Source: a virus (lineage: Duplodnaviria; Heunggongvirae; Uroviricota; Caudoviricetes). Taken from it: a stretch of 48,774 bases of DNA. The notes beneath the pieces are model-generated. The model did no database searches, had not been told where the DNA came from, and worked only from the letters and a program-made list of their open reading frames with translations. The stretch is from the IMG/VR virus record IMGVR_UViG_2909267149_000001; one strand, given 5' to 3'. This document shows, piece after piece, positions 1,481 through 47,892 of this stretch. Numbering within the stretch: the first letter of the stretch is position 1; each line of letters opens with the position of its first letter. Made by a program: the position numbers and the translations under genes.

Positions 1481-1768
1481 ATGGATAAAGATACTGTTTT
1501 AAAAATGTTGAATCCGGCTTGTTTAAAAAAAGCGGATGAATGGGAATCTCCTACATGTGGAGAAGTTCGGGCAGTCATTGGCCTGACCGGAATGAGCGGC
1601 TCGCAGTTGGCCAAAAAACTTGGCTTAAAAGATAGTCGCAATGTTCGCAACTGGCAGATGTTAAAGGAGTCCACATCCAGATCCAGCATTCCGTATGCAG
1701 CCTGGGCGCTGCTGTGTTACTTCGCTGGGTTAGGGTTAATCTTCATTGATAACAAAACAGATGTTTGA
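1481..1768 (+). CDS. Hypothetical small protein, possible HTH
   Basis: ORF with GGAG 5 nt upstream of ATG at 1481; the track start at 1469 is an in-frame alternative. Confidence 0.4.
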   Translation: MDKDTVLKMLNPACLKKADEWESPTCGEVRAVIGLTGMSGSQLAKKLGLKDSRNVRNWQMLKESTSRSSIPYAAWALLCYFAGLGLIFIDNKTDV

Positions 1769-2988: not shown

Positions 2989-2992
2989 TGCT

Positions 2993-3109
2993 CATAGAAT
3001 TATATAATTATATATTTATATAAAAAGTGCTTTACAGGTGGGAAAAAAATTCCTAAGGTTATACCCGAAACCGAGCGATACCCGCCCTGGTTAAACCGGA
3101 GATAACCCG
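2993..3109 (+). promoter_or_regulatory. Repeated promoter-leader element, copy A (AT-rich palindrome, TTTACA-17bp-TAAGGT, conserved 5' UTR, GGAG SD)
   Basis: Near-identical to copies at 12450-12575 and 19477-19593; ends at the ATG of the 3110 ORF. Confidence 0.6.
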
Positions 3110-3490
3110 ATGAGCATGATTAAAATCCGCAAAAACGCTTTCCTTAAAATTCAAACTATCCTGGCTGGTTCTGTTGGCGTGATTTGCCGTTCTTCCTCAA
3201 GCCGCATCGATGACTGCTACGATGATGAGTATCGTGTGTCCTCATGCGATGAGGCTTTAACCTGGCTGAAGGAGAATCAGGAACGTGCCCAGGTATATCT
3301 GGAAACAGAGAACGGCAATCAGATGCTGCGTATTAGCGGTCGTTATGGATTTGAAACTACATTCATGGCCTATTTTAATCAGGCTTACTTTGACAAGGAG
3401 TTGGCCTGGTACACTGATCGCATGAGCAAAAGCGAGCCAGCCCCGATTACACCGCCGAACAATAAACCATTTTTATTCCTCGTTAAGTAA
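3110..3490 (+). CDS. Hypothetical protein driven by repeated promoter element
   Basis: 126-aa ORF immediately after the conserved leader and SD. Confidence 0.5.
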   Translation: MSMIKIRKNAFLKIQTILAGSVGVICRSSSSRIDDCYDDEYRVSSCDEALTWLKENQERAQVYLETENGNQMLRISGRYGFETTFMAYFNQAYFDKELAWYTDRMSKSEPAPITPPNNKPFLFLVK

Positions 3491-3498
3491 ACACAATG

Positions 3499-3526
3499 CG
3501 CAAAGTGTCATTTTGACACTTTGCGA
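3499..3526. terminator. Perfect 12-bp stem hairpin (cgcaaagtgtca-tttt-tgacactttgcg), candidate terminator or protein-binding palindrome
   Basis: Perfect inverted repeat directly downstream of the 3110 ORF; no T-run. Confidence 0.4.
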
Positions 3527-5202: not shown

Positions 5203-6345
5203 TTATGGTCTGCTTTTCTGTGCCAGCTTATCAGCACATGTTTTTATCAGATCCTGTAGTGTCCTGGCTGGCAGGTTTGCATCCAGTACGCTGAGTATGC
5301 TGTTGTGATCAGCCTGGTCGACTACTTTGCCTGTCGGTGGTAGTAGCTTGAGCTGAGGATTCAGGTTTTCGTCAAAGCTGATAAGTGCTCTGGCGTTTCT
5401 GAGCAGATCAAGAAGTAAGGCTGATATCACATTTTCCTGAGTCATTGCTGGCAGACTTAGCGCCGCTTTGGTTTTCCCTGTTGCCTTGTCAAACTCCTTG
5501 ATTAGTTCCTTCCTGTAGTTCGGTTCCGTTAATAGCCGATTATGCTCTGTTGCCGCGCGGATAATCGTTTTTTCCTGGTACAGTCGTTTAGCCAGATCGC
5601 GCTCGTACTGTGTTTTTAACACGCTGCTGATAGCGTTAAAGGCTTCAATGTAGGCCAGCTTGATATCCTTCACGCCTGGACCGTCGATACTTTCCATGAG
5701 CAAGGTAAATCCGTCTTTTGTCATGCGATAGATTGTTATTTCGCGGTCGCTTCCTTCCAACGGTCGTTGCTCTTTAAAGAAATGACGCGCCGCAGCTGTG
5801 CGAGGAATGCGTAACGCATCGATGGCCATAACGATGGAATTGTTTGTGGTGCTGAATGCCTGGGCAACATCGGCTGAGGTTGTGAGTGGCTCGTTGTTGC
5901 ACACTTTAATGTAAAACATTGGTTTGGCGTTGAGCGTATCGACAACCTCACGAGCATTGTTTGGTGAGACGGTTACGGTCGCGGCCGTTTGTGCGTTCTG
6001 GTTGAAATAGCAGTCTTCCAGTTTTTCGAACACATCCCAAGCCTGATCGGTTTCGAGCATTTTGGCGTGACGGGCTGCTCCGTGTTCGGTCCAGAGAATT
6101 AGGGAGCGGGCATTTTTACCAACTAACCCGATTGTTTCAGGTCTGTTCTTGAACTCGCGTAATTCGTTTTTTTCAATTTTAAAGTAATGCTTTCCGGCTA
6201 TGAATCGCGTCGTGTTGTTCAGAAAGTTATCAGAAATGTTTTTGATTTTTGTTCCGTATAACTGCGCCAGAAGTTCACTAGTGATAACGGGGATCTGGTT
6301 ATGCAGGATAGGCTGTAGGGTGTTAACGGTCGGAAGCGTTTTCAT
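5203..6345 (-). CDS. Phage antirepressor (Ant-like; KilA-N/ORF6N-like N-terminus and Rha-like regulatory domain)
   Basis: 380-aa protein with motifs recalled from antirepressor families; GGAGG RBS; translationally coupled to an upstream small ORF. Confidence 0.55.
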   Translation of the reverse strand: MKTLPTVNTLQPILHNQIPVITSELLAQLYGTKIKNISDNFLNNTTRFIAGKHYFKIEKNELREFKNRPETIGLVGKNARSLILWTEHGAARHAKMLETDQAWDVFEKLEDCYFNQNAQTAATVTVSPNNAREVVDTLNAKPMFYIKVCNNEPLTTSADVAQAFSTTNNSIVMAIDALRIPRTAAARHFFKEQRPLEGSDREITIYRMTKDGFTLLMESIDGPGVKDIKLAYIEAFNAISSVLKTQYERDLAKRLYQEKTIIRAATEHNRLLTEPNYRKELIKEFDKATGKTKAALSLPAMTQENVISALLLDLLRNARALISFDENLNPQLKLLPPTGKVVDQADHNSILSVLDANLPARTLQDLIKTCADKLAQKSRP

Positions 6346-6533: not shown

Positions 6534-7418
6534 GGTGATAGTTCCCTTAAAGGTTAAGGATACTCACCACCGTCTGGTTCCAATCATTGGGTGGTGAGAC
6601 GTACAGGGTTGGAACTACCGGTCACCATGGAATCCGGCGAGTCTTACGACTCCCCCGCACGCCCCACCATAATTTGGGTGTAGCAGTGCTTTACGCATAA
6701 AAAAACCGCTAACGCGGTATGCGCCATGATGATTATCGGGGTTCCAATCCCGGCCGTAGATTTTGCTACGGCTCGGAAAGTGTCCACCAATGGCGCATTC
6801 ATGTCAATACGGCGGGATTTTAACAGAGACAACCACATAGCGTGGGTTTATTGGTAGGCAGAAACAAAAAAACCGCCCTATTGAGGACGGTTCTTTCGTG
6901 CTGATCGGATTCGCGGTCCTTTCAGCATTACGTTGTTGTATAAACAACCACGCAAGCACAAGCAGCAAGTTAATTTTACCCAAAAGGTAATAATAGTCCA
7001 CTATTATGCTTCAAAAAATTGTGGTTCTTGTTGTGCCTGCAAACTCACAGATTGTGGGTAGGTTACTGATTTTGTGAAAATAAACGAGTTTTTTCGTTTA
7101 ATTTCTTTCCTATTACTAATCTTAAAATAATCGTAAAATACCTGTGGACCTTCCCGCCGATTCGCACCCGGGCACCGACTTTAGGGGAGGATTCTCCGTT
7201 GCCGTACATGCAAGCACAAGCAGCCGTGCTTGCTCTCGCGTTGTTTTCGTCGGTGGGGATGCCGTGAAACGGCCTGTAAGGGCCATACAATGAAAAAATA
7301 CTGTATGTGTATTTTTATCGTTGTTACTGGAGCTTTGTTTACGCCACATGGGGAGGGTTGGAAGATTACTGATAACGCTCTGAATGTGACGATAAACATT
7401 AGCAGCAAGTAGCGATTA

Positions 7419-7442
7419 GGCCCCTTCGGGGGCCTTTTTTAT
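7419..7442 (+). terminator. Rho-independent terminator on plus strand
   Basis: aggccccttcgggggcct hairpin followed by T6. Confidence 0.6.
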
Positions 7443-7662: not shown

Positions 7663-7917
7663 TTACTTCTGGTTGTATTGAGCCTTGAGTAACTCAAAAG
7701 ATTTTGTCAGCACTTCTTTCAATGACATATCCATTGAGCTGGCGAACGTTTTGTACTCGCGTTTAAATTCAGGGTCGACGTTAAACGCCATTTGTGCCCC
7801 ACCTGATTTGGTTCTGGTTGGCGTTTCAGTCGGGTCGAAAACCTGCGGTTGTTCGATCGATGGCGGTACGCCTTTGCTGTTCTTCTTTGGTGGTTTTGAT
7901 GGTGCGGCCATGTGCAT
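7663..7917 (-). CDS. Small partition/regulatory protein, ParG-like (possible ribbon-helix-helix)
   Basis: 84-aa protein directly downstream of a ParA-type ATPase in the same operon; disordered basic N-terminus and structured C-terminus typical of ParG-like centromere binders. Confidence 0.45.
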   Translation of the reverse strand: MHMAAPSKPPKKNSKGVPPSIEQPQVFDPTETPTRTKSGGAQMAFNVDPEFKREYKTFASSMDMSLKEVLTKSFELLKAQYNQK

Positions 7918-7954
7918 CCCCTCTTATATAAATCTATAAAACTATAATTATATA

Positions 7955-8608
7955 TTACGCGGCAGTAGTCAGAGCCTCAAGCTGGTTGATAATCCCCTGA
8001 ATAACGTCGTCTGCCTTTTTGCGTGGCGCAACGTATGAGCACTCAATGAGGCTTAAGCCCTTATCCTGAGCTTTGCTCAGAGCTGGCTTGTGGGGAATGT
8101 ACTTATCGACAACAAAGTATGGCGTATTAGCCAGGTACTCTTGGGCTTCAATATAGTCAGCTTCGTTTTCAGCCGCGCCGGAAAACACCATGCAAATTTT
8201 CTTGATTGGTACACCCTTTTTAACGATGCCGTGAGCTGTGTTAACGGTGGTTTCCAGGTCATCGGTAGAGAATCTGGTTGGCAAAATAACCATATCCAGA
8301 AATTCAGAGAGCTTCGGTACTGATTCAGATGCGTAGGCACCGCCATCTACGATAACCAGGTCGTATACTTCTGATTCGATGATTTTCTGGACTTGTGATG
8401 GTGTGCCGCACGGCTGTGCCGCGATTGCTGGTTCGATATTGTTGGCCATTCTGCGTTGTACCCAACGCGTTACCGTTCCGTTAAGCACATCCATATCGAT
8501 CAGGCATACATTCCAGCCAGCCTTTGCATAAGCAACTGCTAAAGCACGAGCAATGGTTGATTTGGTTACGCCGCCTTTTCCGTTGAAAATACCTACAGAT
8601 ATAGTCAT
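7955..8608 (-). CDS. Partition ATPase, ParA/ParF family (Walker-type)
   Basis: Deviant Walker A GKGGVTKST near the N-terminus; start at 8608 preferred, 8623 is the alternative upstream ATG. Confidence 0.8.
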   Translation of the reverse strand: MTISVGIFNGKGGVTKSTIARALAVAYAKAGWNVCLIDMDVLNGTVTRWVQRRMANNIEPAIAAQPCGTPSQVQKIIESEVYDLVIVDGGAYASESVPKLSEFLDMVILPTRFSTDDLETTVNTAHGIVKKGVPIKKICMVFSGAAENEADYIEAQEYLANTPYFVVDKYIPHKPALSKAQDKGLSLIECSYVAPRKKADDVIQGIINQLEALTTAA

Positions 8609-8623
8609 TTGTCGAGACTCCAT

Positions 8624-8758
8624 GTGTTTGATTATATAATTCTATAAATCTATATTTATAGAATGAGGTAAGCATAACCAACTTTTTGGCGGATGAAAAG
8701 CGTTTTATATAATTATATAAATCTATAATCATATAAGCGGGCGTTAGCCCGCTTGCAG
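8624..8758. repeat. AT-rich repeat array upstream of the partition operon (candidate centromere/operator)
   Basis: Two blocks of tatataattatataaatctata-type repeats containing the TATAATTATA palindrome. Confidence 0.5.
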
Positions 8759-9133
8759 TCAGAGGTCAGCTATCGTTGATATCAGTTGATTTGCTAGCTG
8801 TCGCTGTTTACGTGAGAGGGTTAGAGCAGCTTCTGAGCGGTCGCTAAGAGGGGTGTTTTCATCGAGAATCATGAGGCATACAGAAATAATAGCCCTGTTA
8901 TATGCCATCAATGACTGGCACAGCTTCGATACCGCTGGCACATCGTATTGTAAGGCCGTTTTGAGGCAGACTTTTTGTTCTGATGCCAGATGAAGGATAG
9001 ATTCTATCCAGTCGATATCTTTCTCATTATCAATGAGTTGGCATAACATACACTCAATCGCTATGTTCAACGCTTGGATTTCGATTCCAGCAGTGATCAG
9101 AGTTTCGTTTTTATTGGCTGTATGTAATTCCAT
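8759..9133 (-). CDS. Hypothetical protein (early-left gene downstream of repressor)
   Basis: 124-aa ORF; an operator-like palindrome lies between it and the repressor gene. Confidence 0.4.
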   Translation of the reverse strand: MELHTANKNETLITAGIEIQALNIAIECMLCQLIDNEKDIDWIESILHLASEQKVCLKTALQYDVPAVSKLCQSLMAYNRAIISVCLMILDENTPLSDRSEAALTLSRKQRQLANQLISTIADL

Positions 9134-9225: not shown

Positions 9226-9882
9226 TCATAACCAGTTGACAACACTAACTACGCGGCCAAGAACTTTATAACGCTTAAATTCCTCGTTATTCAGATGCTT
9301 AGTGTTCATTTCAGCATCCCTTTCGGTTGACAGCATAACAGCATTGTCACCCGGTATGACTCTACAGTGCCTCAAAACAACCAGGCCATTTCTGTCTTCA
9401 AGGGCATAGATCCCCTCATGAATCTCTGTATCGTCTGTATTAATCAGGACTTGGGAGCCAGGGGATATTGTTGGTGACATTAACTCATCGTTGCTCTGGA
9501 GAACTGACAGAGACGATGGGTTGATGTTCTTGCTTCGTAGAATCTCCTGTTCTATCGCCAGCACTGGCTTTTCTCCGGCGTGCGATGCTATGTCATTTTT
9601 TATAGCTACAAGCCCAGGAATAACAGGAGCGTTAGTATTCTGGGGTGGGAACGGGTTATCTGTTAAGCACGCGATATAAGGCGCTGATGCTTTCAGGGCG
9701 TGCGCGATTTTCTTGATGGCAGGTATAGATGGTTGTCTTAATCCGGCCTCATAGTTCTGCAAGGTGCTTAAGCCTATTCCAGTGACTTGCTGGAGATCTC
9801 CGGCAGTCATGCCGGATTGTTTCCGTAGAGTCTGAATGCGCAGACCTATTTCTTTCTTGATGTTCTCGTCGTTGCTTTTCAT
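9226..9882 (-). CDS. CI-like repressor (N-terminal XRE HTH, C-terminal S24 LexA-like peptidase domain)
   Basis: 218 aa; N-terminal HTH; C-terminal domain with candidate Ser (LMSPTISPGS) and Lys (YKVLGR) dyad; divergent from a Cro-like gene across an operator region. Confidence 0.8.
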   Translation of the reverse strand: MKSNDENIKKEIGLRIQTLRKQSGMTAGDLQQVTGIGLSTLQNYEAGLRQPSIPAIKKIAHALKASAPYIACLTDNPFPPQNTNAPVIPGLVAIKNDIASHAGEKPVLAIEQEILRSKNINPSSLSVLQSNDELMSPTISPGSQVLINTDDTEIHEGIYALEDRNGLVVLRHCRVIPGDNAVMLSTERDAEMNTKHLNNEEFKRYKVLGRVVSVVNWL

Positions 9883-9920
9883 GTCTCATCAATCGTGAAT
9901 GGTGGGTTATTTATACATTA

Positions 9921-10036
9921 CCACATTTAGTGGTTTTCACATGGTAAGACGAGAGGTGGACCACAAATAGAAGGTTATTTTTTGTTTCGCCCATTGAAAA
10001 ACTCACAATATGTGGTTTTAATACCACATATTGTGG
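9921..10036. promoter_or_regulatory. Operator region (OR-like) with three CCACA-N3-TGTGG sites
   Basis: ccacatttagtgg (9921-9933), tcacaatatgtgg (10003-10015), ccacatattgtgg (10024-10036) between divergent repressor and cro-like genes. Confidence 0.6.
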
Positions 10037-10055
10037 TTTAACTGGAGTTCGTTAA

Positions 10056-12028: not shown

Positions 12029-12406
12029 GTGAGACGCGATCTGGATAGCTTGTTTGAGCTATGGGCGCTGTGGGTGCGCAATGGCTGCAACGCCCGTAGC
12101 GGTTTCGCGTCGATGTTAGAAATGATGATGGTTACGCGCTGCCAGTTTACCGGAGGGGGCGGCGCACCAAATGACTCACTGGAAACCAGTATCGAGGGAG
12201 CGGTGACGGCCCTCACGGTAGTTGATGAGACTGCGGCGCTGGTTGTCCGAATTGAATACGGGGCGTGGGAGATTCGGGGCCTCGACATAAATGCACCGCA
12301 TATTGATAAAGCCCACGCCCTTTCTCTTAGTCTCAGACAGTATCGCCGGAAGCTGGCAAAAGCCAGGGCGTATGTTGTCGACTATTTGAAAAAGCGAAGA
12401 GAGTAA
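12029..12406 (+). CDS. Putative late-gene regulator, Q-like antiterminator (PF06530-like)
   Basis: 125-aa protein with LFELWALW motif resembling the LERWGAW motif of small Q proteins; sits immediately upstream of promoter-leader copy B; GTG start. Confidence 0.35.
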   Translation: MRRDLDSLFELWALWVRNGCNARSGFASMLEMMMVTRCQFTGGGGAPNDSLETSIEGAVTALTVVDETAALVVRIEYGAWEIRGLDINAPHIDKAHALSLSLRQYRRKLAKARAYVVDYLKKRRE

Positions 12407-12449
12407 AAGTGTCATTTTGAGCTGTTTTGATGGTGTGTAGACATCGGGA

Positions 12450-12575
12450 ACATCGAAAATCTATAAATATATAATTATAGATTTATATAAAAAGTGCTTT
12501 ACAGGTGGGAAAAAATTTCCTAAGGTTATACCCGAAACCGAGCGATACCCGCCCTGGTTAAACCGGAGAAATCTG
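12450..12575 (+). promoter_or_regulatory. Repeated promoter-leader element, copy B
   Basis: Near-identical to copies A and C; ends at the ATG of the 12576 ORF. Confidence 0.6.
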
Positions 12576-13643
12576 ATGAATAAACAAGAAATTATTTCTG
12601 ACTGGATCAACAACCCTAACAGCCTGTTAAGCACTGATACTGGCTACCTATTACGCCATGTTAATGGTCGTATGGTCAAAAGCGATGAGCACGAAACCTT
12701 TTTCTTTGTTGAAGACGATGGGCGCATCTATGAGGATGGTTACTCTTATGAAGCCCAAACTGGTTGTATCCCTGCGGAGCTGGTGGACGTAACAGAAGAT
12801 CTGCGCAAAGCATGGCTTGAACAGCAGCAGCGCGGAGATGATTACGTAAACACCTATCAGGAACGCCAGAACGCGCGTCTTGCCCGATATATTGCTCGTG
12901 CAGAAAAAGCCAGAAAAGAAGGTGCGGTAGCGCATAAGCGAGCGCATGACCTGTTGGATGTGATCCCGTTAGGCCAGCCGATTTTAGTTGACCATTATAG
13001 CGCGAAAGGCCATCGCCGCCGTTTGTCTAAAGCTGATGCGTTATTAAGAAAAGCGTTTGTTGAATGCGAAAGTAAAGCATCACACTACGAGAGCAAAGCC
13101 GCAGGTGTTGGTCGTAATGGAATTTCGTCTGATGATCCTGATGCGCTATTTAAGTTGCTTCGTAAGCTGCAAGGCTGCATGAAGTCACACGTCAAAATGA
13201 AGGCCGCAAATAAGGCCATTCGCAAATACAAAAAAGACCAATTACAGCAGCTTTCTGCATTAATCGATCTCAGGTTTACAGAAAGCGAAGCCAAAGAGTT
13301 ACTGGCCGGAGATTTCTGTGGGCGCATCGGATTCCCTTCATACGCACTGAGCAACAATAACGCCGAAATCAAACGACTACAGAGCCGTATTAAGGAGCTT
13401 GAATCGGTCAAGTCTGTAACAGGAGCACAGCGCGAAGAATACGACGGCTTTTCTATGGAGATAGATCCAGAGGATAACCGCATCCTGTTTTATTTCCCTG
13501 GCAAACCAGAGGCAAACATTCGTTCGCTGCTTAAATCACGCGCCTTTAAGTGGAGTCCAACCCGTAATGCATGGGTTCGCAAGATTACTCCAAACGCCCT
13601 GGCTGATGCCCGATATCTAAAAGAATCGCTATTGAAAGCCTGA
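12576..13643 (+). CDS. Hypothetical 355-aa protein (first gene behind promoter-leader copy B)
   Basis: Long ORF with coiled-coil-like K/E-rich central region. Confidence 0.5.
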   Translation: MNKQEIISDWINNPNSLLSTDTGYLLRHVNGRMVKSDEHETFFFVEDDGRIYEDGYSYEAQTGCIPAELVDVTEDLRKAWLEQQQRGDDYVNTYQERQNARLARYIARAEKARKEGAVAHKRAHDLLDVIPLGQPILVDHYSAKGHRRRLSKADALLRKAFVECESKASHYESKAAGVGRNGISSDDPDALFKLLRKLQGCMKSHVKMKAANKAIRKYKKDQLQQLSALIDLRFTESEAKELLAGDFCGRIGFPSYALSNNNAEIKRLQSRIKELESVKSVTGAQREEYDGFSMEIDPEDNRILFYFPGKPEANIRSLLKSRAFKWSPTRNAWVRKITPNALADARYLKESLLKA

Positions 13644-13720
13644 CAGTAAGCCTACGGCGGGACGTCTCCCGCCGTATATAGAATTATATATTTATATAAA
13701 TGTATAAGGATGCCTCGACA

Positions 13721-16355: not shown

Positions 16356-16689
16356 TGAGAAACCATGCGCTTACGAGCAGTATTCAGATATTCAGAGCGG
16401 GTAATGAAGCACATACAACCGAAAACATGGCAGAAACTGGACTCTATGGGAGTTAAGTTGGAGAAGATTACTCAACTTAAGCAGTGGCATATCGGCGAAT
16501 ATTATGGAAGTCCTGGTCGGGATGTTCGGTTGGTAAAAAGTTGAACATTGCTTTTTTATTGATCGATTAACCACGATATGAAGGTTTTTTTATGGGAAAA
16601 CCTTGTTTTAGGTGGTAACTGGGTGTAGTGTTTCATTTAACGTAGTAAAACTGCGTTAAGCGATTACCGCGTAATTTGTTGCTTTATGA

Positions 16690-16720
16690 AGCCCTGCCTT
16701 TTTCGGCGGGGCTTTTTTTT
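16690..16720 (+). terminator. Rho-independent terminator upstream of the lysis cassette
   Basis: gccctgcc-tttttc-ggcggggc hairpin (one G-U pair) followed by T8. Confidence 0.5.
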
Positions 16721-16733
16721 AACGAGGATTTCA

Positions 16734-18216: not shown

Positions 18217-18340
18217 TACCGCCTGTGATTGGGTAAAGCCCATCTACCTGACTGATCACGATATCGATGTTATGGACCGCCAGACAAAGAAAGATATTCT
18301 GGCTCATAACAGGGCATGGGAAATCAACTGTCCAAAGTAA
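18131..18340 (+). CDS. o-spanin (Rz1-like lipoprotein), overlapping the i-spanin in another frame
   Basis: Signal peptide with lipobox-like LIASC; start embedded in the i-spanin gene. Confidence 0.55.
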   Translation: MYSRVLTIWLMTMLIASCGSRGSVPVVVDTACDWVKPIYLTDHDIDVMDRQTKKDILAHNRAWEINCPK

Positions 18341-18509
18341 TATATATTTCTATAATTATATAAATATATAGTTACAACATTCTATGCGCTTTTCTCATTA
18401 GCGCATGCATCAACCATGTTTGTCTGATATGCCGCCGCGCCCAAAAATCCTGAATTTATTGGCTGGGATTTTCGTGCGCGGCGCCACACCAGACAAACAG
18501 ATCAAATAT

Positions 18510-18893: not shown

Positions 18894-19481
18894 ATGGAGG
18901 CAATTGCATTGTTTAATCTGATTTATGCAGATCCCCCCTGGGAATACAAAGACAAGTGTAAGGATGGGAATCGTGGAGCTGGTTTTAAGTATCCAACGAT
19001 GAAAGCTGAGGAGATTGCTCGTATTCCTGTCTGGCAGCTTGCTAATCCTGAATCGTGTTTGTTGGCCATGTGGTGGGTTCCGACTCAGCCAGAAGAAGCG
19101 TTGCTGGTGGTGAAAGCATGGGGATTCAGGCTGATGACCATGAAGGGCTTCACATGGAACAAATGTGGTAGCCGACAGCCAGATAAGCTGGTGATGGGGA
19201 TGGGGCATATGACTCGTGCGAACAGTGAAGATTGCTTGTTTGCGGTAAAAGGCAAACTGCCGACTCGCCTTGATGCGGGGATCATTCAGTCGTTTACATC
19301 GCCTCGTCTGGAACATTCACGGAAGCCTGATGTGGTTCGTGACAAGCTGGTAAGACTGTTAGGTGATGTTCCTCGTATTGAGCTGTTTGCTCGCGGTGAT
19401 TTACCTGATGGCTGGCATGGCTGGGGCAACCAGTGCAACGGAGGTATCCAGTTGCATGATGCTCTCTGGCAAGTGTCATAG
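18894..19481 (+). CDS. DNA N6-adenine methyltransferase, MT-A70 family
   Basis: Catalytic DPPW motif (YADPPWEY) near the N-terminus. Confidence 0.75.
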   Translation: MEAIALFNLIYADPPWEYKDKCKDGNRGAGFKYPTMKAEEIARIPVWQLANPESCLLAMWWVPTQPEEALLVVKAWGFRLMTMKGFTWNKCGSRQPDKLVMGMGHMTRANSEDCLFAVKGKLPTRLDAGIIQSFTSPRLEHSRKPDVVRDKLVRLLGDVPRIELFARGDLPDGWHGWGNQCNGGIQLHDALWQVS

Positions 19482-19593
19482 AATTATATAATTATAGATT
19501 TATATAAAAAGTGCTTTACAGGTGGGAAAAAATTTCCTAAGGTTATAACCGAAACCGAGCGATACCCGCCCTGGTTAAACCGGAGATAACCCG
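19477..19593 (+). promoter_or_regulatory. Repeated promoter-leader element, copy C
   Basis: Near-identical to copies A and B; begins at the MTase stop codon and ends at the ATG of the 19594 ORF. Confidence 0.6.
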
Positions 19594-19863
19594 ATGAAAG
19601 TACAAGACCGTGAAGTAGTAAAAAACCTCCTGCAATACCTGACCTCAAAAAACCTGACTGGCAGCGTTGAGTTCCGTGAAGCGTTAAAACATTTCAACGT
19701 CACTACGGTTTATCGTTGGGAAAACAAACATTCTGAAAGACCGTATGTGGTGGATGTTTTTGCGCCTGATATTGAGTGCGGTTTTGAGCGCCATTCATTC
19801 AAAAAGAAACATTCCGCTGATGTTTTTTGTGAGGTTGTATGTGCGGCAGGAGATGATGAGTGA
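19594..19863 (+). CDS. Hypothetical protein
   Basis: 89-aa ORF directly behind promoter-leader copy C. Confidence 0.45.
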   Translation: MKVQDREVVKNLLQYLTSKNLTGSVEFREALKHFNVTTVYRWENKHSERPYVVDVFAPDIECGFERHSFKKKHSADVFCEVVCAAGDDE

Positions 19864-20060: not shown

Positions 20061-20082
20061 ACCGTAACGATAACGAACAACG

Positions 20083-20110
20083 AGCCTCGGCAATTGCCGG
20101 GGCTTTTTTA
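20083..20110 (+). terminator. Terminator-like hairpin
   Basis: gcctcggcaattgccggggc followed by T6. Confidence 0.45.
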
Positions 20111-23937: not shown

Positions 23938-24657
23938 GTGGCTGACAGAATTGAGATAAAGATGGATTTTTCTTCTCAGGATATTCAACGACAACTCCAG
24001 CGCCTTGAAGAACGCGAATTGCCGTTCGCAATGGCGCTTGCGGCAACCAGAACGGCAAAGGCTTCTCAGGCTGCGATTAAGAATGAAATTAATCGGGTAT
24101 TTGACAGGCCCACGCCGTGGATTCAGAACTCTACTTACGTTTTGGCCGCAAAGAAGAGTGATCCTACAGCCATTGTGTATGCTCGTGAATGGGGAGGAAC
24201 GCCAGCCCCTGTAACGTTGACTCCGCAAATCGAAGGTGGCCAACGACAGTACAAACGCTCAGAAGGGGCGCTAAGGGCTGGTGGATATTTGCCTAACGGC
24301 TGGCAGCTTGCTCCTGGTCCCGGCGCAAAGCTGGACAAATACGGGAATATTTCGCGGGGGCAATTACAGCAGGTCTTATCTGGCCTAAGAGTTCAGCGAG
24401 ATGCGCATCAAAATCGCCGTCAGGGCAAGTCTACGGAGTTTTTTGTTGTTCGACCTGGTACAAGTAACCCGCTTCAACCAGGCGTCTGGCAGCGCGTTGG
24501 GCGGCGTCCTACGTTGATCCTTACGTTTATCCAGCAACCTAACTATTCGCAGCGTCTTGATTGGCATGGCGTGGCGCTGCGTGCTGGTGAGGATGCGTTT
24601 GCTGATGAAGTCACAAAGGCTATTGATGACATTCTTTCTAAGACCTTCTCTCGTTAA
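23938..24657 (+). CDS. Hypothetical protein
   Basis: 239-aa ORF with AGGAGG RBS before GTG start. Confidence 0.45.
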   Translation: MADRIEIKMDFSSQDIQRQLQRLEERELPFAMALAATRTAKASQAAIKNEINRVFDRPTPWIQNSTYVLAAKKSDPTAIVYAREWGGTPAPVTLTPQIEGGQRQYKRSEGALRAGGYLPNGWQLAPGPGAKLDKYGNISRGQLQQVLSGLRVQRDAHQNRRQGKSTEFFVVRPGTSNPLQPGVWQRVGRRPTLILTFIQQPNYSQRLDWHGVALRAGEDAFADEVTKAIDDILSKTFSR

Positions 24658-25214
24658 TCATCGTGTGGTTGATGGTGTTGTTATGCAGAGTGTATTCACT
24701 GTGTTCTGTAGCGTCGCTCGCTGGCTGTCTGTGGGGGAGCACGAGCATCGTTTCATCGTCCGGCAGAATTGGGTCCTTCTGGCCAAAAGCGTTGGATGCG
24801 GGTCATTCGAACCCCGATGTTCGGCTAGCTAAACGTGAAAAAAGTTAGGTTAAAAGTTGCGGTAAAAGAAATTTACTCATCTCATTGAAAAATATCGGGA
24901 AAACGTGATTTTTTGCTGTATTTGTGCTGGTAAAAAGAAAGTAGAAAATTTTCTTTTAGATCATCAAGATACGCGCAGATCTTTAACCAATGTGATGTTG
25001 TTCTGATAAAAATCGTTATAAATCATGCAAATACATCCAATCTTTTAACCAAAACACCATCTCAAGATCCTTTTTACTTATAAAAACTTAATAAAATCAG
25101 ATGATTATGCTGGTTTGTGTGATTTTTTATGAGTAAAAAGATCGTCATTTTTCTCTTTTAGTATCAATAAGTTAAACAGTTTTCTTTAACCTGTTGTGTT
25201 ATGGCGGTTAAAAA

Positions 25215-25805
25215 ATGGCTCTAAAAATCGAATATTTACCAGTCGGTAAGCTGCTCAGATACGCCAAAAATTCACGGACTCATTCAGATGAGCAGGTTGA
25301 ACAGTTGGTGAACAGTATCCGTGAGTTCGGTTTCACTAATCCTGTGCTGATCGATGAAAAGAATGAACTGATTGCGGGGCATGGTCGGCTTGCAGCAGCC
25401 GAAATTCTGGAAATGGATAAAGTTCCGGCGATTCGGTTGAGTAACCTTTCTGAAAAACAGAAGAAGGCTTACAGGATTGCAGATAACAAGCTGGCCTTAA
25501 ATGCTGGCTGGGATATGCAGCTTCTGGCCGAAGAAGTCAAAGAGTTAATGGATGATGATTTTGATATTGATCTGCTTGGGTTTAATGATGCAGAGCTTGA
25601 CGAAATGTTAAGCGATGAACAGCCGCAGGAAGAAGACGATAATTCTTCCCCTGTTGTTCAAATTAAGTACCTGTCTATTGATAAAGAACGTATTCCCGCG
25701 ACGGATATGGAAATTGCATTGTTGCTGGATGTTTATCGTCAGTACCACGACGCGCATGAAACGCATGAGGGATTTGTTCAGTATCTTGCTAATGGTTGCA
25801 AGTAA
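25215..25805 (+). CDS. ParB N-terminal-domain protein (paralog of the 21925 ORF)
   Basis: Shares extended blocks with the 21925 product (NPxLIDE, IAGHGR, QKKAYRxADN, LNAGWD); acidic C-terminus. Confidence 0.55.
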   Translation: MALKIEYLPVGKLLRYAKNSRTHSDEQVEQLVNSIREFGFTNPVLIDEKNELIAGHGRLAAAEILEMDKVPAIRLSNLSEKQKKAYRIADNKLALNAGWDMQLLAEEVKELMDDDFDIDLLGFNDAELDEMLSDEQPQEEDDNSSPVVQIKYLSIDKERIPATDMEIALLLDVYRQYHDAHETHEGFVQYLANGCK

Positions 25806-36510: not shown

Positions 36511-39303
36511 ATGGCCAGCAATAAGAACTTTAAGCTGGCTTTTGAAATTGGCGGCAAAGTTGCCGCCTCTCTCCCCAAAAGTTTTACTACAGCTAATCAG
36601 GCTGTTGCTAAATTAAATGCCGAGCTTGCTGGATTAACGAAAGAACATGGGGAAATTCAAAAGCTACAATCTGTAAAAGTAAAGGTTGGACAGACTGCCC
36701 TCGAATATCATAAAGCTGCCGCTCGCGTTGAAGAGTTACAGAAGCAAATAAAAAACACGGCCAATCCAACCAGAGCGATGCTTCGTGACTTTGAGAAGGC
36801 AAAAACACATTCATCGAATTTACGAGCATCACTACGTTCTCAGCGTGAAGAACTGGCCGCTTTAAAGTCTGCCTATCAGGGAGCTGATACATCTGCCAGA
36901 GCTTTGGCCTCAAGAGAGAAAGAGCTTAAAGCCAGCATTGATCGTAATCGTGAGGCTCAGGTCCGTAGCGTTGAGCAGGTTAACCGCTACAGAACGGCTT
37001 TGGCTTTAGCCAGAGCAAATGTTCAGCAAGTGAAAAAACAGCAGGAGGAACTTAACCGGGCATTAGAAAAACAACGTATTGATAAAATTAACAGCTATAA
37101 AAATGCGTTGGCTGAAGCACGGAAAAATGTTCTTGCAGTAAAACGTGCTCAGGAGGAGTTAAACCGCGCGTTGGAAAGGCAGCGTGAATTGAAGCGAGAG
37201 CATCTTGGTGAGGCAAAGAGTCAACTTGTAAGGTCAGGATTACAAACTGGTGCTGTAGCGGCTGGTGCATTTGCTGCTGCTAACAATGCAGCAAATTTCA
37301 ATCGTGAAAACAAAATGATTGGTCTTACGGCAGATATGAAGCCGGAAGAAGTTCAGGCGATGGGGCAGGCGATGCTTGTTACCGGAACGGCCACCAACCA
37401 GTTTGCATCTGATATTCAGGCCGCTCAGGGTTTTCTCGTCGCTGCTGGGCAGGATTATAAAGAGGCTCAGGCGAATCTACTAACTATTGGGCGAACAGCT
37501 ACAGCTACTGGCTCTGATATCCTCGATGTCTCGAAAGCATCATTTACATTAAGTGACTCATTGAAGATTGATCCATCTCAAATGAAGTCTGCAATGGGGA
37601 TTCTGGTTCAGGCAGGGAAAGAGGGAAACTTTGAATTTAAAGATATGGCCAAAAATCTTCCTGTGCTTGGTGCTCAGTTCCAGGCATTAAAAATGGGAGG
37701 TAAAGAAGCCGCCGCGACGATGGGGGCAGCTTTGCAGATAGCTCGCAAAGGTGCTGCAACTTCGGATGAGGCTGCTAATAATATGAACAACTTTTTGGCG
37801 AAAATACTTTCCCCTGAAACACTAAAAAAAGCAAAGAAAAATTTCGGTGTAGATTTATATAAAATTGTCACAACAGCGCAGAAAAAAGGGAAGAATCCAT
37901 TCGAAGCTGCAATGCATTCTGTCATGAAAATGACTAAGAACGGAGATCAGAAGTTACTTGGTGAGCTATTTGGCGATATGCAGGTTCAGAACTTTGTTCG
38001 TCCGATGATTCAAAACTGGAAGGAATACCAGAGAATCAAAGCAACATCTCTTGGTGCTGGAAGTGCTGTTATTGACCGCGATTTTGCCAACATAACGAAA
38101 GACAATGCGGAGCGATTGAAACAATTACGTATTCAGGCTAGCAATGCATCATTAAGTTTTGGTCAGGCCTTGCAACCTGCTTTGAATGCCGCGCTTAGTG
38201 TTTTGGTTCCGCTGATTACAAAAATTAGTGAATTTGTAGCTAACAACCCCAATTTTGTGTCTCAGGTTGTGATGGCGGCAGGTGCGTTTCTAACCATGAA
38301 AAGTGTGGTTATAGCGTGTAGGGTAGCTATGCTGGCTTTATCTGTAGCGACAAAGCTAACACCCTTCGGGTGGATTCAGATGGCTATATCTGCGCTGGTT
38401 GCCGCAGGAATATTGCTCTATCAGAACTGGGATAAGATCAGAGATTATGCTGTCAGAGTTTGGCCTTCTGTTAAGGAATATACAGTTAAATCGTTTGAAG
38501 CTATAAAAAACTTTATCTTAAACTTTGATCTCAATGGATGGATTATATCTATGTTTGGTAAAGCATGGGATTATCTTTCCAACATAAACTGGAGTTCGGC
38601 AGGAGTAAGAATTTACAGTACATTAATTAGTGCTTTTAAATGGATGTCTCCGCTTCCGTTCTTAATTAAAGCATTTAAACTTACAACAAATTACCTTTCT
38701 GGTATTAACTGGAGCGAAACAGGAAAGAAAATCATAGATACACTGGTATCTGTTTTTATGCGTTTTTCACCAGTTGGACTCTTTATAAGAGCATTCCAAT
38801 CTGTAACGGCTTATTTGTCTGGAATAAACTGGAGTGAGTCAGGCGCAAAAATAATTGAGACGTTAATCACTGGGATAAAATCAAAAGCAAATGCTTTAAT
38901 TAATGAAGTGAAAGGCGTTTTTTCTTCTGTACGTGAGTATTTACCGTTCTCTGACGCGAAAAAAGGTCCATTCTCACAGCTAACAAAGTCAGGTGGTGCA
39001 ATAATGACTACTCTGGCATCAGGCGTTAGCAGGAATAACAGCTTACAGAATGCAATAGCAACCAAGTTCGGGCAATCAAATTTATCACCTCACGGGATAT
39101 CTGCCGCCGGGACTTCTGGACCTCGCCAGAACGTTAATGCTGTGACTGGTGGAATAACCTATTCACCTGTAATCAATCTTCCGGCTGGTTCACCAAAGGA
39201 AACTGAGGCGGCAGCTAAAAGAGCATTAGATGCGGGATATTCTGATTTTGAGAAGAAATTGAGTGCTCATATGTTCCAACAACGGAGATTAAGTTTTGGA
39301 TGA
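36511..39303 (+). CDS. Tail tape measure protein
   Basis: 930 aa, coiled-coil N-terminal half, hydrophobic segments; canonical position. Confidence 0.85.
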   Translation: MASNKNFKLAFEIGGKVAASLPKSFTTANQAVAKLNAELAGLTKEHGEIQKLQSVKVKVGQTALEYHKAAARVEELQKQIKNTANPTRAMLRDFEKAKTHSSNLRASLRSQREELAALKSAYQGADTSARALASREKELKASIDRNREAQVRSVEQVNRYRTALALARANVQQVKKQQEELNRALEKQRIDKINSYKNALAEARKNVLAVKRAQEELNRALERQRELKREHLGEAKSQLVRSGLQTGAVAAGAFAAANNAANFNRENKMIGLTADMKPEEVQAMGQAMLVTGTATNQFASDIQAAQGFLVAAGQDYKEAQANLLTIGRTATATGSDILDVSKASFTLSDSLKIDPSQMKSAMGILVQAGKEGNFEFKDMAKNLPVLGAQFQALKMGGKEAAATMGAALQIARKGAATSDEAANNMNNFLAKILSPETLKKAKKNFGVDLYKIVTTAQKKGKNPFEAAMHSVMKMTKNGDQKLLGELFGDMQVQNFVRPMIQNWKEYQRIKATSLGAGSAVIDRDFANITKDNAERLKQLRIQASNASLSFGQALQPALNAALSVLVPLITKISEFVANNPNFVSQVVMAAGAFLTMKSVVIACRVAMLALSVATKLTPFGWIQMAISALVAAGILLYQNWDKIRDYAVRVWPSVKEYTVKSFEAIKNFILNFDLNGWIISMFGKAWDYLSNINWSSAGVRIYSTLISAFKWMSPLPFLIKAFKLTTNYLSGINWSETGKKIIDTLVSVFMRFSPVGLFIRAFQSVTAYLSGINWSESGAKIIETLITGIKSKANALINEVKGVFSSVREYLPFSDAKKGPFSQLTKSGGAIMTTLASGVSRNNSLQNAIATKFGQSNLSPHGISAAGTSGPRQNVNAVTGGITYSPVINLPAGSPKETEAAAKRALDAGYSDFEKKLSAHMFQQRRLSFG

Positions 39304-43634: not shown

Positions 43635-45704
43635 GTGAGTAAATTATTATTTACGATGACTGACGCCGGGCGTCAGGAGCTGGTTAATGCCAACAAAACA
43701 GGAACAAATAAAGTTGAGATTGTTTCTGTTGGTTTAGGTAGTAGATATTATGTCACGTCAACTTCACAAACAAATATAACAAACGAAATAAAACGACTTA
43801 CCACAATAGGTGGCAAAGTTGTTTCCCCTGATACAATTCATGTAACGGCGAAGGATGATAGTAAAGATGAGTATGTTGTCCATACAATAGGATTGTATAC
43901 AAATAAGGGAACGTTGTTTGCTGTATACTCGCAAGAACAAGCAATAATAAATAAAGCATCATCTACTATTGCTTTAATATCAAGTGACATAGCAATCAAG
44001 ACTCTTGATACTAAAAATATTACATTTGGTGATATTGAGTTTATTAATCCTCCCGCAACCGAAACTGTTGTTGGGGTTGCAAGATTTGCCAATGAACAAG
44101 AAATTGATGACGGTACAGATGATTCCCTTGCTGTTTCAGCAAAGCGGCTTAAGCAAGCCATTGTGAAACATGAACAATCACGTAATCATCCTGATGCAAC
44201 TTTAACCTCAAAAGGCTTTGTTCAACTTAGCAGCGCCACCAATAGCTCGTCTGAAACGCTTGCTGCGACGCCTAAGGCTGTTAAGGCAGCATATGACCTG
44301 GCTAATGGCAAATACACCGCACAGGACGCTACCACAGCGCGAAAAGGGATTGTTCAGCTCAGTAGTGCCACCAACAGCACGTCTGAAACGCTAGCAGCAA
44401 CACCAAAGGCTGTTAAGGCAGCGTATGATCTTGCGGCCGGAAAGGCTCCGTCCAATCACACGCATTCGTGGGAGCAGATAACAAATGTGCCTGTAGCTTC
44501 ACTGACTGTAAGGGGAATAACTCAGCTCAGTAGTTCCACCAACAGCACGTCTGAAACACTGGCCGCGACATCGAAAGCGGTCAAGGCGGTAATGGATGAA
44601 ACGAACAAGAAAGCGCCCTTAAACAGTCCTGCGTTGACCGGAACGCCAACAACGCCAACTGCGCGACAGGGAACGAATAATACCCAAATCGCAAGCACGG
44701 CTTTCGTTATGGCTGCGATCGCTGCCCTCGTGGACTCGTCACCTGACGCACTGAATACGCTGAACGAGTTAGCGGCGGCGCTGGGAAACGACCCGAATTT
44801 TGCGACCACCATGACTAACGCGCTTGCGGGTAAGCAACCGAAAGATGCCACCCTGACGGCGCTGGCCGGGCTTGCTACTGCGGCAGACAAGTTTCCGTAT
44901 TTTACGGGGAATGATGTCGCCAGCCTGGCACCCCTGACAAAAGTCGGGCGGGATATTCTTGCGAAATCGACCGTTGCTGCCGTTATCGAATACCTCGGTT
45001 TACGAGAACTCGGCACAAGCGGGGAGAAAATACCGTTACTCAGTACAGCGAATACCTGGACTAATAGACAAACATTCAGCGGTGGCCTTTCTGGGGAACT
45101 GTCCGGCAATGCCGCTACTGCAACAAAGCTGAAAACAGCACGAAAAATTGCTGGAGTTGGTTTTGATGGTTCTAGCGATATTTCAATTAGTGCCAAAAAT
45201 GTCAATGCATTTGCACTCCGACAAACAGGTAATACTGTTAATGGTGATACATCCGTTGGATGGAATTGGGATAGTGGTGCATATAACGCCCTGATTGGTG
45301 GTGCATCTGCATTAATTCTTCACTTTAATATAAATGCTGGTAGCTGTCCTGCCGTACAATTCCGTGTGAATTATAAAAATGGTGGCATTTCCTACAGGTC
45401 GGCTCGTGATGGTTATGGGTTTGAATTAGGTTGGTCAGATTTCTATACCACGACACGAAAACCTTCAGCGGGAGATGTTGGTGCATATACGCAGGCAGAA
45501 TGTAACTCAAGGTTTATTACAGGTATTCGCCTTGGCGGTCTGTCATCTGTTCAGACATGGAATGGTCCCGGCTGGTCTGACAGGTCAGGTTATGTCGTTA
45601 CGGGTTCAGTTAACGGAAACCGTGATGAATTAATTGATACAACTCAGGCAAGGCCAATTCAGTATTGCATTAATGGGACGTGGTATAACGCGGGGAGTAT
45701 TTAA
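43635..45704 (+). CDS. Tail fibre protein (constant N-terminal part plus currently expressed variable C-terminus Sv)
   Basis: 689 aa; three internal ~30-aa repeats; crossover site inside the ORF; C-terminus YCINGTWYNAGSI parallels the inverted alternative. Confidence 0.8.
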   Translation: MSKLLFTMTDAGRQELVNANKTGTNKVEIVSVGLGSRYYVTSTSQTNITNEIKRLTTIGGKVVSPDTIHVTAKDDSKDEYVVHTIGLYTNKGTLFAVYSQEQAIINKASSTIALISSDIAIKTLDTKNITFGDIEFINPPATETVVGVARFANEQEIDDGTDDSLAVSAKRLKQAIVKHEQSRNHPDATLTSKGFVQLSSATNSSSETLAATPKAVKAAYDLANGKYTAQDATTARKGIVQLSSATNSTSETLAATPKAVKAAYDLAAGKAPSNHTHSWEQITNVPVASLTVRGITQLSSSTNSTSETLAATSKAVKAVMDETNKKAPLNSPALTGTPTTPTARQGTNNTQIASTAFVMAAIAALVDSSPDALNTLNELAAALGNDPNFATTMTNALAGKQPKDATLTALAGLATAADKFPYFTGNDVASLAPLTKVGRDILAKSTVAAVIEYLGLRELGTSGEKIPLLSTANTWTNRQTFSGGLSGELSGNAATATKLKTARKIAGVGFDGSSDISISAKNVNAFALRQTGNTVNGDTSVGWNWDSGAYNALIGGASALILHFNINAGSCPAVQFRVNYKNGGISYRSARDGYGFELGWSDFYTTTRKPSAGDVGAYTQAECNSRFITGIRLGGLSSVQTWNGPGWSDRSGYVVTGSVNGNRDELIDTTQARPIQYCINGTWYNAGSI
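44214..44600 (+). repeat. Three ~90-bp direct repeats inside the tail fibre gene
   Basis: Repeated coding units LSSATNS(S/T)SETLAAT(P/S)KAVKA starting near 44214, 44346 and 44513. Confidence 0.7.
44983..45008. promoter_or_regulatory. Inversion crossover site (gix/cix-like), left
   Basis: ttatcgaatacctcggtttacgagaa; inverted partner at 47803-47828 shares the core cctcggtttac. Confidence 0.65.
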
Positions 45705-46268: not shown

Positions 46269-46796
46269 TTATTCAGGCTTTTGTGGCCATTCAGGATTTG
46301 CCGTATCCACACGGCTGACCAGAACACTGTAGCGTTCCCATGACTCCAGTCGTGCGCGCTCCTCATCCGTCGCCATATTCAGCCTGACAGCGCGTTCCAG
46401 TGGCTGAATAACGCTTTCTGCTTCGGAAAGTAACGCGGCCTTTTGTGATTCGGCCTGTTGTTGCTGTTCGTCAGCCGTATAAATCCGTTTAACCACAGCT
46501 CCGTCCTTAAACATCCACTTCCCTGAATCATCGGCACGACGATTGGCTGTTATATCGGGAACCTCAACGACGCTAAAGCCTTCAGGGTTAAGCGTAGAGG
46601 CATCCTTGGTGATAGCGACAATAATATTATTTTCATCGTAAACAATCTTTATTGTGTCTGGCTGAAAGTTTTTCACTTCCTCATACCAGTTTTTTCCGTC
46701 CTCAGAGTAAAGCCAGATAACTCCGTGTTTCTTTGTTAATTCGTACTGCTCAAGTGTTTTAGCGTTACCCGCTTTAATGTTCTTTAAGTGCATCAT
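46269..46796 (-). CDS. Alternative tail fibre assembly chaperone (U'-like)
   Basis: 175-aa paralog on the opposite strand inside the invertible segment. Confidence 0.7.
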
Positions 46797-46797
46797 A

Positions 46798-47883: not shown

Positions 47884-47892
47884 TTAGAAAGT

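Follow-up and report, generated by a model that had tools for sequence, protein, structure and literature searches.

Three copies of a promoter cassette with partition-type iterons and a candidate KorC-type operator in a phage-plasmid

Introduction

In the kil-kor regulon of IncP-1 plasmids (RK2/RP4), KorA, KorB, KorC and TrbA act as global regulators with multiple sites (PMC7314908). RP4 KorC regulates the klcA, kleA and kleC promoters, and the KorC site of pOXA-48 lies between the -35 and -10 elements of KorC's own operon (PMC12365149); autoregulation through sites so placed is described for pOXA-48 and RP4 alike (PMC12365149, PMC7314908). Here we describe a promoter cassette of ~118 bp that occurs three times in a viral genome of 48,774 nucleotides (Caudoviricetes; IMG/VR record IMGVR_UViG_2909267149_000001), the whole of which is referred to below as the window. 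This genome, a complete circular phage-plasmid, is collinear with plasmid pATCC25922_4 from E. coli ATCC 25922. We propose that the copies are composite sigma-70 promoter cassettes of the plasmid-prophage under negative control, resembling promoters of a kil-kor regulon, and give this reading, which is drawn from sequence comparison, a probability of roughly 0.55.

Omega of pSM19035 (inc18), a ribbon-helix-helix ParB, is centromere-binding protein and promoter regulator in one; it is small, has an unstructured N-terminal tail and acts on short contiguous repeats in several promoters that double as parS (PMC4627068). In the ParF/ParG/parH-OF system of TP228, each ParG site comprises a 4-bp box, which takes one ParG dimer, and an AT spacer of 4 bp, and arrays upstream of the operon are operator and centromere at once (PMC3130281). 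In lambdoid phages, a sigma-dependent pause element (a -10-like TAnnnT) defines the Q-loading site, and the Q gene is followed by the promoter PR', a short transcribed unit, the terminator tR' and the late genes (10.1101/651190). How phage-plasmids coordinate maintenance with the lysis-lysogeny decision is little known, and the anatomy of the cassettes offers testable wiring, with two candidate trans-acting proteins, predicted sites and three target units.

Results and Discussion

Anatomy of the three copies

Copies A (2992-3109), B (12459-12575) and C (19476-19593), all on the plus strand, were recovered by reading, by alignment and by an unbiased repeat search (intervals 2992-3113, 12459-12580 and 19476-19597). 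They align without gaps from an AT-rich block through the ATG, and pairwise identity is 95-98% over the 86 nt from GTGC through the ATG. Since the G+C-containing promoter and leader belong to the matching part, the similarity is not confined to low-complexity AT-rich sequence. The sequence-only reading that had drawn attention to the element was right about three near-identical copies, about their ends at the ATG of plus-strand open reading frames (ORFs; 3110, 12576 and 19594) and about the places of TTTACA-17 bp-TAAGGT and the GGAG Shine-Dalgarno (SD) sequence. It began copy B at 12450, whereas homology starts at ~12459. Its AT-rich palindrome is actually a direct array of four 8-bp units, and its 5' untranslated region (UTR) of ~55 nt shrinks to 49-50 nt between the -10 and the ATG, of which probably ~42 nt are transcribed. 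A 17-bp palindrome in the promoter spacer, and its link to a KorC-like repressor gene, had been overlooked.

As read from its sequence, the cassette is built of four layers: partition-type iterons, a sigma-70 promoter, a predicted KorC-type operator and a common leader. The iterons of copy A (2992-3023) are the four 8-bp units TCATAGAA TTATATAA TTATATAT TTATATAA. The promoter (3031-3059) comprises TTTACA at 3031-3036, a 17-bp spacer and TAAGGT at 3054-3059, and its palindrome GGGAAAAAAATTCCTA (3040-3055) has one arm mismatch. The discriminator and leader (3060-3109) consist of a variable TATACCCG and a conserved AAACCGAGCGATACCCGCCCTGGTTAAACCGGAGA, with a putative hairpin at 3069-3092 and GGAG at 3098-3101, before the ATG of a 126-aa protein at 3110. 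In copy B the first iteron unit is inverted (ATCTATAA AT ATATAATT ATAGATTT ATATAAAA, 12459-12490); the promoter (12498-12526) has TTTACA at 12498-12503, the palindrome GGGAAAAAATTTCCTA at 12507-12522 and TAAGGT at 12521-12526, and the leader (12527-12575) has a putative hairpin at 12536-12559 and SD at 12565-12568, before the ATG of a 355-aa DUF3560 protein at 12576. Copy C has its iterons at 19476-19507, its promoter at 19515-19543 (TTTACA 19515-19520, palindrome 19524-19539, TAAGGT 19538-19543) and its leader at 19544-19593 (putative hairpin 19553-19576, SD 19582-19585), followed from the ATG at 19594 by genes for an 89-aa and then a 66-aa protein. The last 6-7 nt before the ATG occur in two forms, TAACCCG in A and C and AATCTG in B.

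The spacer palindrome and a KorC homologue

The spacer is filled by a 17-bp palindrome, RGGAAA-N3-TTTCCTA, that overlaps the first two bases of the -10. A scan of the window gave 7 strand-matches, compared to 0.18 expected, at four sites: the three cassettes and 1434-1450. The latter is a perfect palindrome, TAGGAAAAGATTTCCTA, within a fourth plus-strand promoter (1426-1454, TTGCCA-17-TACCAT), which has neither iterons nor the common leader and lies directly 5' of a gene (1481-1768, plus strand) for a 95-aa helix-turn-helix (HTH) protein, the candidate binder of the palindrome. The same promoter precedes the gene in 16 family loci and in L038, a locus of the type-2 lineage, where the palindrome is kept and its flanks differ.

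The 95-aa protein and P0058 share 52% identity (E 1e-25); the latter is encoded right after klcA (Antirestrict) and klcB in the IncP-1-type plasmid L068, that is, in the korC position. A tblastn search with P0058 matches annotated korC genes or KorC proteins in plasmids, and also the present phage-plasmid family; profile searches gave no curated hidden Markov model match to KorC for the 95-aa protein. Upstream of the klcA homologue of L068, TAGGGCATTATGCCCTA adjoins a KorA-type operator and ends in the TA of TATAAT. It has the length of the cassette palindrome, the same TAGG...CCTA ends and the same register relative to the -10. The likeness to IncP-1 thus comprises the homologous regulator, a 17-bp palindrome of 7-3-7 architecture whose last TA opens the -10, and, at the level of sequence, the presence of the operator at the regulator's own promoter and at several dispersed promoters (PMC7314908, PMC12365149). 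Unlike IncP-1, where the inner half-site is GGGCA, the window has GGAAA; the units here lie in the phage part, share a leader and have targets unrelated to klcA and kle. In IncP-1, KorA and the ParB homologue KorB co-regulate the KorC-controlled klcA, kleA and kleC promoters; the part of HTH KorB, which acts on OB sites, would be played here by a small ParG-like protein with the 8-bp iterons as its sites.

Diverged cassettes also retain the palindrome. They are identified below by their identity to the protein encoded at 12029-12406 of the window (the 12029 protein, discussed below), homologues of which, at 57-66% identity, served to fetch the distant relatives. The palindrome is perfect in the type-2 lineage (TAGGAAAATATTTCCTA). 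L033 and L029 (87% and 82%) read TTTACA GGTAGGAAAATATTTCC TATGGT, L029 ending with its contig at TAT; L031 (66%) reads TTTACA CATAGGAATAAAATTCC TATTAT, and L004 (63%) TTGCGT GCTAGGACTAAAAGTCC TATTAT. Common to these is a 17-bp element, TAGGAnn-N3-nnTCCTA, the last TA of which opens the -10. Inner positions change in pairs that keep the symmetry: AA/TT, AT/AT (L031, GGAAT/ATTCC) and CT/AG (L004, GGACT/AGTCC). We infer that the palindrome is a KorC-type operator, with candidate autoregulation at the fourth promoter.

Variation in the -10 among 76 sites from ~60 loci is restricted to positions 3-5 (TAAGGT, TATGGT, TAGTGT, TAAGAT, TAATGT, TATGAT); T1, A2 and T6 were fixed by the search pattern at most sites, so that only the independently found copies attest them. 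A degenerate promoter pattern scan of genome contigs returned only two chance hits. Operators for cI were considered as a constituent of the cassette and rejected, as ACCACA...TGTGGT is absent from all copies. Inverted repeats of the type ACCACA-N3/4-TGTGGT do occur at 9885-10040 and 9169, between a divergent cI-like gene (9226-9882, minus strand) and the early-right genes, and are probably cI operators.

The iterons and the partition locus

The iterons follow the 8-bp consensus TTATAKAW. A scan with three consecutive units, allowing up to 4 mismatches, together with a repeat search, found exactly eight blocks of four units in the window; the pattern scan gave 32 hits, compared to 0.03 in local shuffles. 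Three blocks belong to the cassettes, three lie around parA and two are solitary (13676-13707, plus strand, flanked by the hairpin that follows the DUF3560 gene and by the next ribosome-binding site; and 18340-18379, plus strand, upstream of a tRNA gene). On the minus strand, the par promoter region (8632-8736) is laid out like the cassettes, with four iterons (8705-8736), 5 nt, TTTTCA (8699-8694), 17 nt and TATGCT (8676-8671), and a second block (8632-8663) covers its start region. The third block around parA (7924-7955) separates that gene from the small gene downstream of it.

The ParA-family ATPase (7955-8623, minus strand; 222 aa, type Ib size) is a small Walker-type ParA devoid of the N-terminal DNA-binding domain; it matches Pfam CbiA, ParA and MipZ, and its RefSeq relatives are assigned to the ParA family. 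The small gene (7663-7917, minus strand; likely start 7911) encodes an 82/84-aa candidate centromere-binding protein whose N-terminal half is basic and disordered and is followed by a short extended segment and two helices. Its AlphaFold2 (AF2) model is disordered at residues 1-42 and helical at 49-61 and 64-83. The L004 orthologue matches HicB with an E-value of 0.0086, below the cut-off, and an hhalign comparison with a ParG sequence was marginal (E 0.0024, 12% probability). The predicted protein appears to have the pattern of ParG and omega, although these searches fall short of proof.

The iterons of four relatives are lineage-specific. They are of GATATA type in L004 (at the par promoter, directly 3' of the 12029-like gene, ahead of the holin gene and at the contig end), of TAATTA- / TAATTAAA type in L005 (seven sites, including the par promoter), of GATAGC/GCTATC type, which is not low-complexity, in L032 (at the par promoter, after the 12029-like gene and at one more site), and of AATAAATA type in L002 (at the par promoter, the weakest array match, and at several other sites). 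Beyond the par promoter, the usual place is just 3' of the 12029-like gene. The predicted strand of the small par protein also varies among relatives (AQMAFNVD, KQLLFRLD, AQLNLRID, KPLHFSVD, KPLNFNVD). Because each lineage has its own iteron at the par promoter and at the dispersed sites, one plasmid-encoded specificity determinant is likely to serve both, and the small ParG-like protein is predicted to bind the iterons. In L002 (3869-4165, minus strand) and L005 (4365-4652, minus strand) the N-terminal tail of this protein carries a KRGRGRP (AT-hook-like) insert; both relatives have pure A/T iterons.

The locus shares with TP228 a small ParA followed by a small protein with a flexible N-terminal tail, an 8-bp site period and arrays upstream of the operon, where the centromere role is a prediction in our case (PMC3130281). 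It differs in that the TP228 arrays are at one locus, whereas the eight blocks here extend over 17 kb, and in the marginal similarity of the small protein to ParG. With omega it shares a small protein with an unstructured N-terminal tail and contiguous short repeats in several promoters. The 7-bp heptads of omega overlap the -35, whereas the 8-bp units here end 7 bp upstream of it; omega belongs to a Firmicute system with other regulated functions, and binding to the present repeats is predicted. Grigoriev and Lobocka in 2001 reportedly described the SopB centromere sites of the plasmid-prophage N15 as scattered rather than clustered at the par operon, an arrangement that the predicted sites of the present phage-plasmid would share. 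Unlike the locus described here, N15 is type Ia, with a large ParA, an HTH ParB and four single sites that are inverted repeats.

A model of negative control

The following steps of binding, repression, timing and leader function are proposed on the anatomy, homology and comparative conservation observed above. RNA polymerase would use TTTACA-17-TAnnnT. The iterons, at about -44 to -75 in the position of an UP element, would be bound by the small ParG-like protein encoded beside parA, so that the eight blocks would be both dispersed centromere sites and operators. The 95-aa KorC homologue would occupy the spacer palindrome and, at the fourth promoter, control its own gene. While the plasmid is resident, the two proteins together would keep the three rightward units low: that of the 126-aa gene, that of the DUF3560 gene in the direction of lysis, and the pair of small genes before the packaging/morphogenesis block. 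The promoters would fire before the repressors accumulate or when these are titrated. The ~42-nt leader would supply a 5'-terminal hairpin and a strong ribosome-binding site, and gene conversion would keep the copies identical.

A more specific form of this idea, which we regard as tentative and would not call probable, is that a temperate myovirus plasmid places its post-early, lysis and packaging promoters under a partition centromere-binding protein and a KorC homologue, with the same blocks serving as centromeres and switches, so that expression reads the plasmid state. If so, the state read out might be copy number, occupancy of the segregation complex or entry into a naive cell (a burst like zygotic induction), and this control layer would be separate from the cI/antirepressor immunity circuit. 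If confirmed, the scheme would show phage genes governed by global plasmid regulators in the manner of kil-kor and omega, and would provide an example of dispersed type Ib centromere arrays doubling as promoter operators.

Several observations weigh against negative control by these two proteins. A generic promoter scan made no call at the cassette promoter, and TAAGGT matches the consensus at 3 of 6 positions. The left palindrome arm of A, B and C in the window has G where symmetry needs A. In the available stretches of L002 and L005, neither the palindrome nor a KorC homologue is present. The iterons could instead be sites for a different protein, for example the 124-aa product of 8759-9133. 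The cassette-driven genes have no assigned function from gene searches or PADLOC, and PADLOC gave no defence-gene match among them. Finally, repression alone leaves access to the late genes beyond the terminators unexplained.

Downstream genes and the 12029 protein

Each cassette heads one or two genes, which are followed by a hairpin or terminator; within the genome the three downstream genes are unrelated to each other. The 126-aa gene after A ends in a 12-bp perfect hairpin (3499-3525) with no T-tract on the plus strand, the DUF3560 gene after B in a G+C-rich plus-strand hairpin (13654-13675), and the two genes after C in a strong intrinsic terminator (20082-20105, plus strand) that precedes the 26-kb packaging/morphogenesis block. 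No better plus-strand promoter heading this late block was found. As the block starts past the C terminator, an antitermination mechanism is likely.

These features bear on the alternative that the cassettes are Q-dependent late promoters, as the sequence-only reading had suggested, at which the 12029 protein would load onto RNA polymerase, so that the terminators are read through into the lysis and morphogenesis genes. This 125-aa Q21-like or sigma-region-4-like protein (12029-12406, plus strand) is a candidate antiterminator. In Foldseek searches with its AF2 model (pLDDT 77) the top matches are all phage 21 Q, over nearly the full length, followed by sigma region 4. The Q21 scores are weak (E 0.28-0.9, probability up to 0.94, TM ~0.5). 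In the family of 12029-like proteins, Pfam Phage_antitermQ matches 1 of 24 members at E 0.074 and Sigma70_r4_2 matches 5 of 24, all below the cut-off. A full-length NCBIfam match to PA0613_fam (E 2.5e-4) is far below its cut-off. PA0613 itself is uncharacterised and stands ahead of the holin gene in the R/F-pyocin cluster of P. aeruginosa; the match may point to a common class of late-gene regulators.

The position of the gene also speaks for Q, since it is the last gene of the early-right operon, with cassette B less than 100 bp further on, in the order of lambdoid Q cassettes, with a promoter, a short transcribed unit, a terminator and late genes (10.1101/651190). Strong terminators at 20082-20105 and 16688-16715 would give such a protein its task. 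The element bound by lambda Q has a spacer position like that of the palindrome, which we also count in favour of Q. Against this, the stretch from the -10 to the SD contains no TAnnnT pause element in any leader variant of either lineage; Q21 binds a direct repeat and not a palindrome (10.1101/651190); the palindrome recurs at the promoter of the korC-like gene, as is typical of an autoregulated repressor, and KorC accounts for it better than Q does; and there are three promoters here, compared to one in lambdoid phages, with coding genes between promoter and terminator. Moreover, a better unit of the PR'-6S-tR' type may lie elsewhere, in the gene-free 190 bp at 16545-16733. We therefore retain from the earlier suggestion the weak fold match and the downstream terminators, and consider Q dependence of the cassettes unlikely, though compatible with repression.

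The 16545-16733 stretch has a possible TTGTTT-17-TAGTGT promoter with a TAACGT -10-like element just downstream, and its strong terminator (16688-16715) stands directly 5' of the holin gene. This layout is reminiscent of a lambdoid PR'-6S-tR' unit, and the Q21-like protein may in fact act here. A 15-mer, AAAGTGTCATTTTGA, is identical at 3502-3516, in the hairpin after the cassette A gene, and at 12406-12420, after the stop codon of the 12029 gene. The 9-mer AAGTGTCAT, found near all cassettes, was rejected as probably due to chance; at C it is coding and variable between plasmids.

Leader conservation and concerted evolution

The near-invariant UTR had been taken to suggest selection on RNA. 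Between family plasmids this invariance was rejected as evidence of selection, as their flanking coding DNA is itself 97-100% identical (94-100% at third positions). The identity of the copies is attributable to concerted evolution: relative to the window, the type-2 lineage shows 69-82% identity in the flanking genes and 86-88% in the cassette, and the two cassette copies of L033 are identical at 86 of 86 positions. Polymorphisms are common to paralogues (TAAGGT/TATGGT, ATAGATTT/ATATATTT, TAACCCG/AATCTG), and a natural recombinant in L048 (metagenome contig OJJP01000130.1) joins a B-type left flank to the start of gene A. Paralogue identity kept by gene conversion can thus resemble selection on an RNA element, which calls for caution.

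Variation of the leader among the 76 sites is confined to ~9 nt after the -10, two hairpin-loop positions and the spacer between SD and ATG. The variable first stretch fits an untranscribed discriminator, by which transcription would begin near G3067/A3068, with the hairpin (3069-3092) at the extreme 5' end. The transcript thus probably has a ~42-nt leader with a 5'-terminal hairpin. A 5'-terminal stem-loop protects mRNAs from decay that depends on the 5' end, ompA being the classic case, and on this ground we read the leader as a stabiliser with a strong ribosome-binding site.

Could a cis-acting leader RNA (a riboregulator, a put-like antiterminator RNA, or a translational repressor or small RNA target) be the point of the cassette, with the promoter incidental? 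Of the ~35 transcribed leader positions that precede the SD-ATG spacer, 33 are the same in the two lineages despite the divergence of the flanking genes, and the eight stem pairs never change among leader variants, which would fit such a role. However, the leaders fold with unexceptional energies (z -0.7 to -1.9), none of the 11 pairs predicted by folding an alignment of 12 variants shows a compensatory change, and Rfam has no match in the cassette (whole window at gathering threshold; cassette C at E <= 10), so that the folding and covariation check proposed with the RNA interpretation gave it no support. The plasmid contains no complement of at least 12 nt to the leader, including in the C4, isrK and ryfA loci, only 9-11-mers at chance level. 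L031 and L004, moreover, keep the promoter and operator architecture with unrelated leaders. We consider a leader-centred explanation improbable. An ATACCCG direct repeat was examined as a protein site and rejected, as the type-2 lineage reads ACAACCA and ATAGTCG.

Distribution of the cassette

The cassette is confined to a ~48-kb phage-plasmid family in searches of PLSDB, complete E. coli genomes and phage records. In PLSDB, 66 plasmids have it, at 189 places in total. Among 5426 complete E. coli genomes it is present in 73 (~1.3%; median 3 places, 211 of 214 places being on plasmids), and the Yersinia pestis phages vB_YpM_39, 41 and 44 carry it at 3 places each. Near-identical genomes were deposited as plasmids of E. 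coli, Klebsiella, E. albertii and E. fergusonii, and also as virions propagated on Yersinia pestis EV76 (vB_YpM_39/41/44), from which the family appears to be a functional phage-plasmid of broad enterobacterial range. A literature search for the Yersinia phages and the plasmid family found no published description of it.

The portable moron cassette of the sequence-only reading survives as a promoter-gene-terminator module; its travelling with different genes does not, because the same three genomic positions are kept in the family lineages examined, type-2 included, and only the first gene after copy C differs, in L033. That the cassette is a passively duplicated or mobile generic promoter before morons, with no dedicated regulators and with the AT-rich block as an UP element or H-NS/IHF target, draws on these modules, on the shared polymorphisms, the L048 recombinant and the identical L033 copies, and on an A-tract, AAAAAGTGC, which resembles a proximal UP subsite, and is improbable given the constant positions, the lineage-specific iterons beyond the par promoter in four relatives, for which a host factor does not account, and a palindrome whose symmetry is kept by paired changes and which recurs at the korC-like gene.

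Other features of the window

The genes of the window include an IncFII-type RepA across the window ends, a RelE/HTH toxin-antitoxin pair, the small ParA with the 82/84-aa gene, a cI-like S24 repressor and the early-right operon. An ORF6N/Rha antirepressor gene (5203-6345, minus strand) adjoins gathering-level Rfam matches to C4 antisense RNA (6587-6674, minus strand), isrK (6699-6772, minus strand) and ryfA (7144-7440, plus strand), and the whole looks like a P1/P7 immI-like antirepressor control module. Further genes are those for lysis, a tRNA and an MT-A70 methylase, and a P2-like block for packaging and tail that contains an invertible-looking fibre module.

In the late region, ~560 bp at 24657-25215 have no long plus-strand ORF, and the ATCC 25922 plasmid has no annotated gene at the corresponding place; cos/pac or a late promoter dependent on an activator may lie here. 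Three 93-nt repeats occur in the tail-fibre gene (44210-44602), and the tape-measure gene has 45-nt repeats every 120 nt (38568-38852). Opposed tail-fibre and assembly genes beside a small recombinase (46269-48447) suggest an invertible host-range segment.

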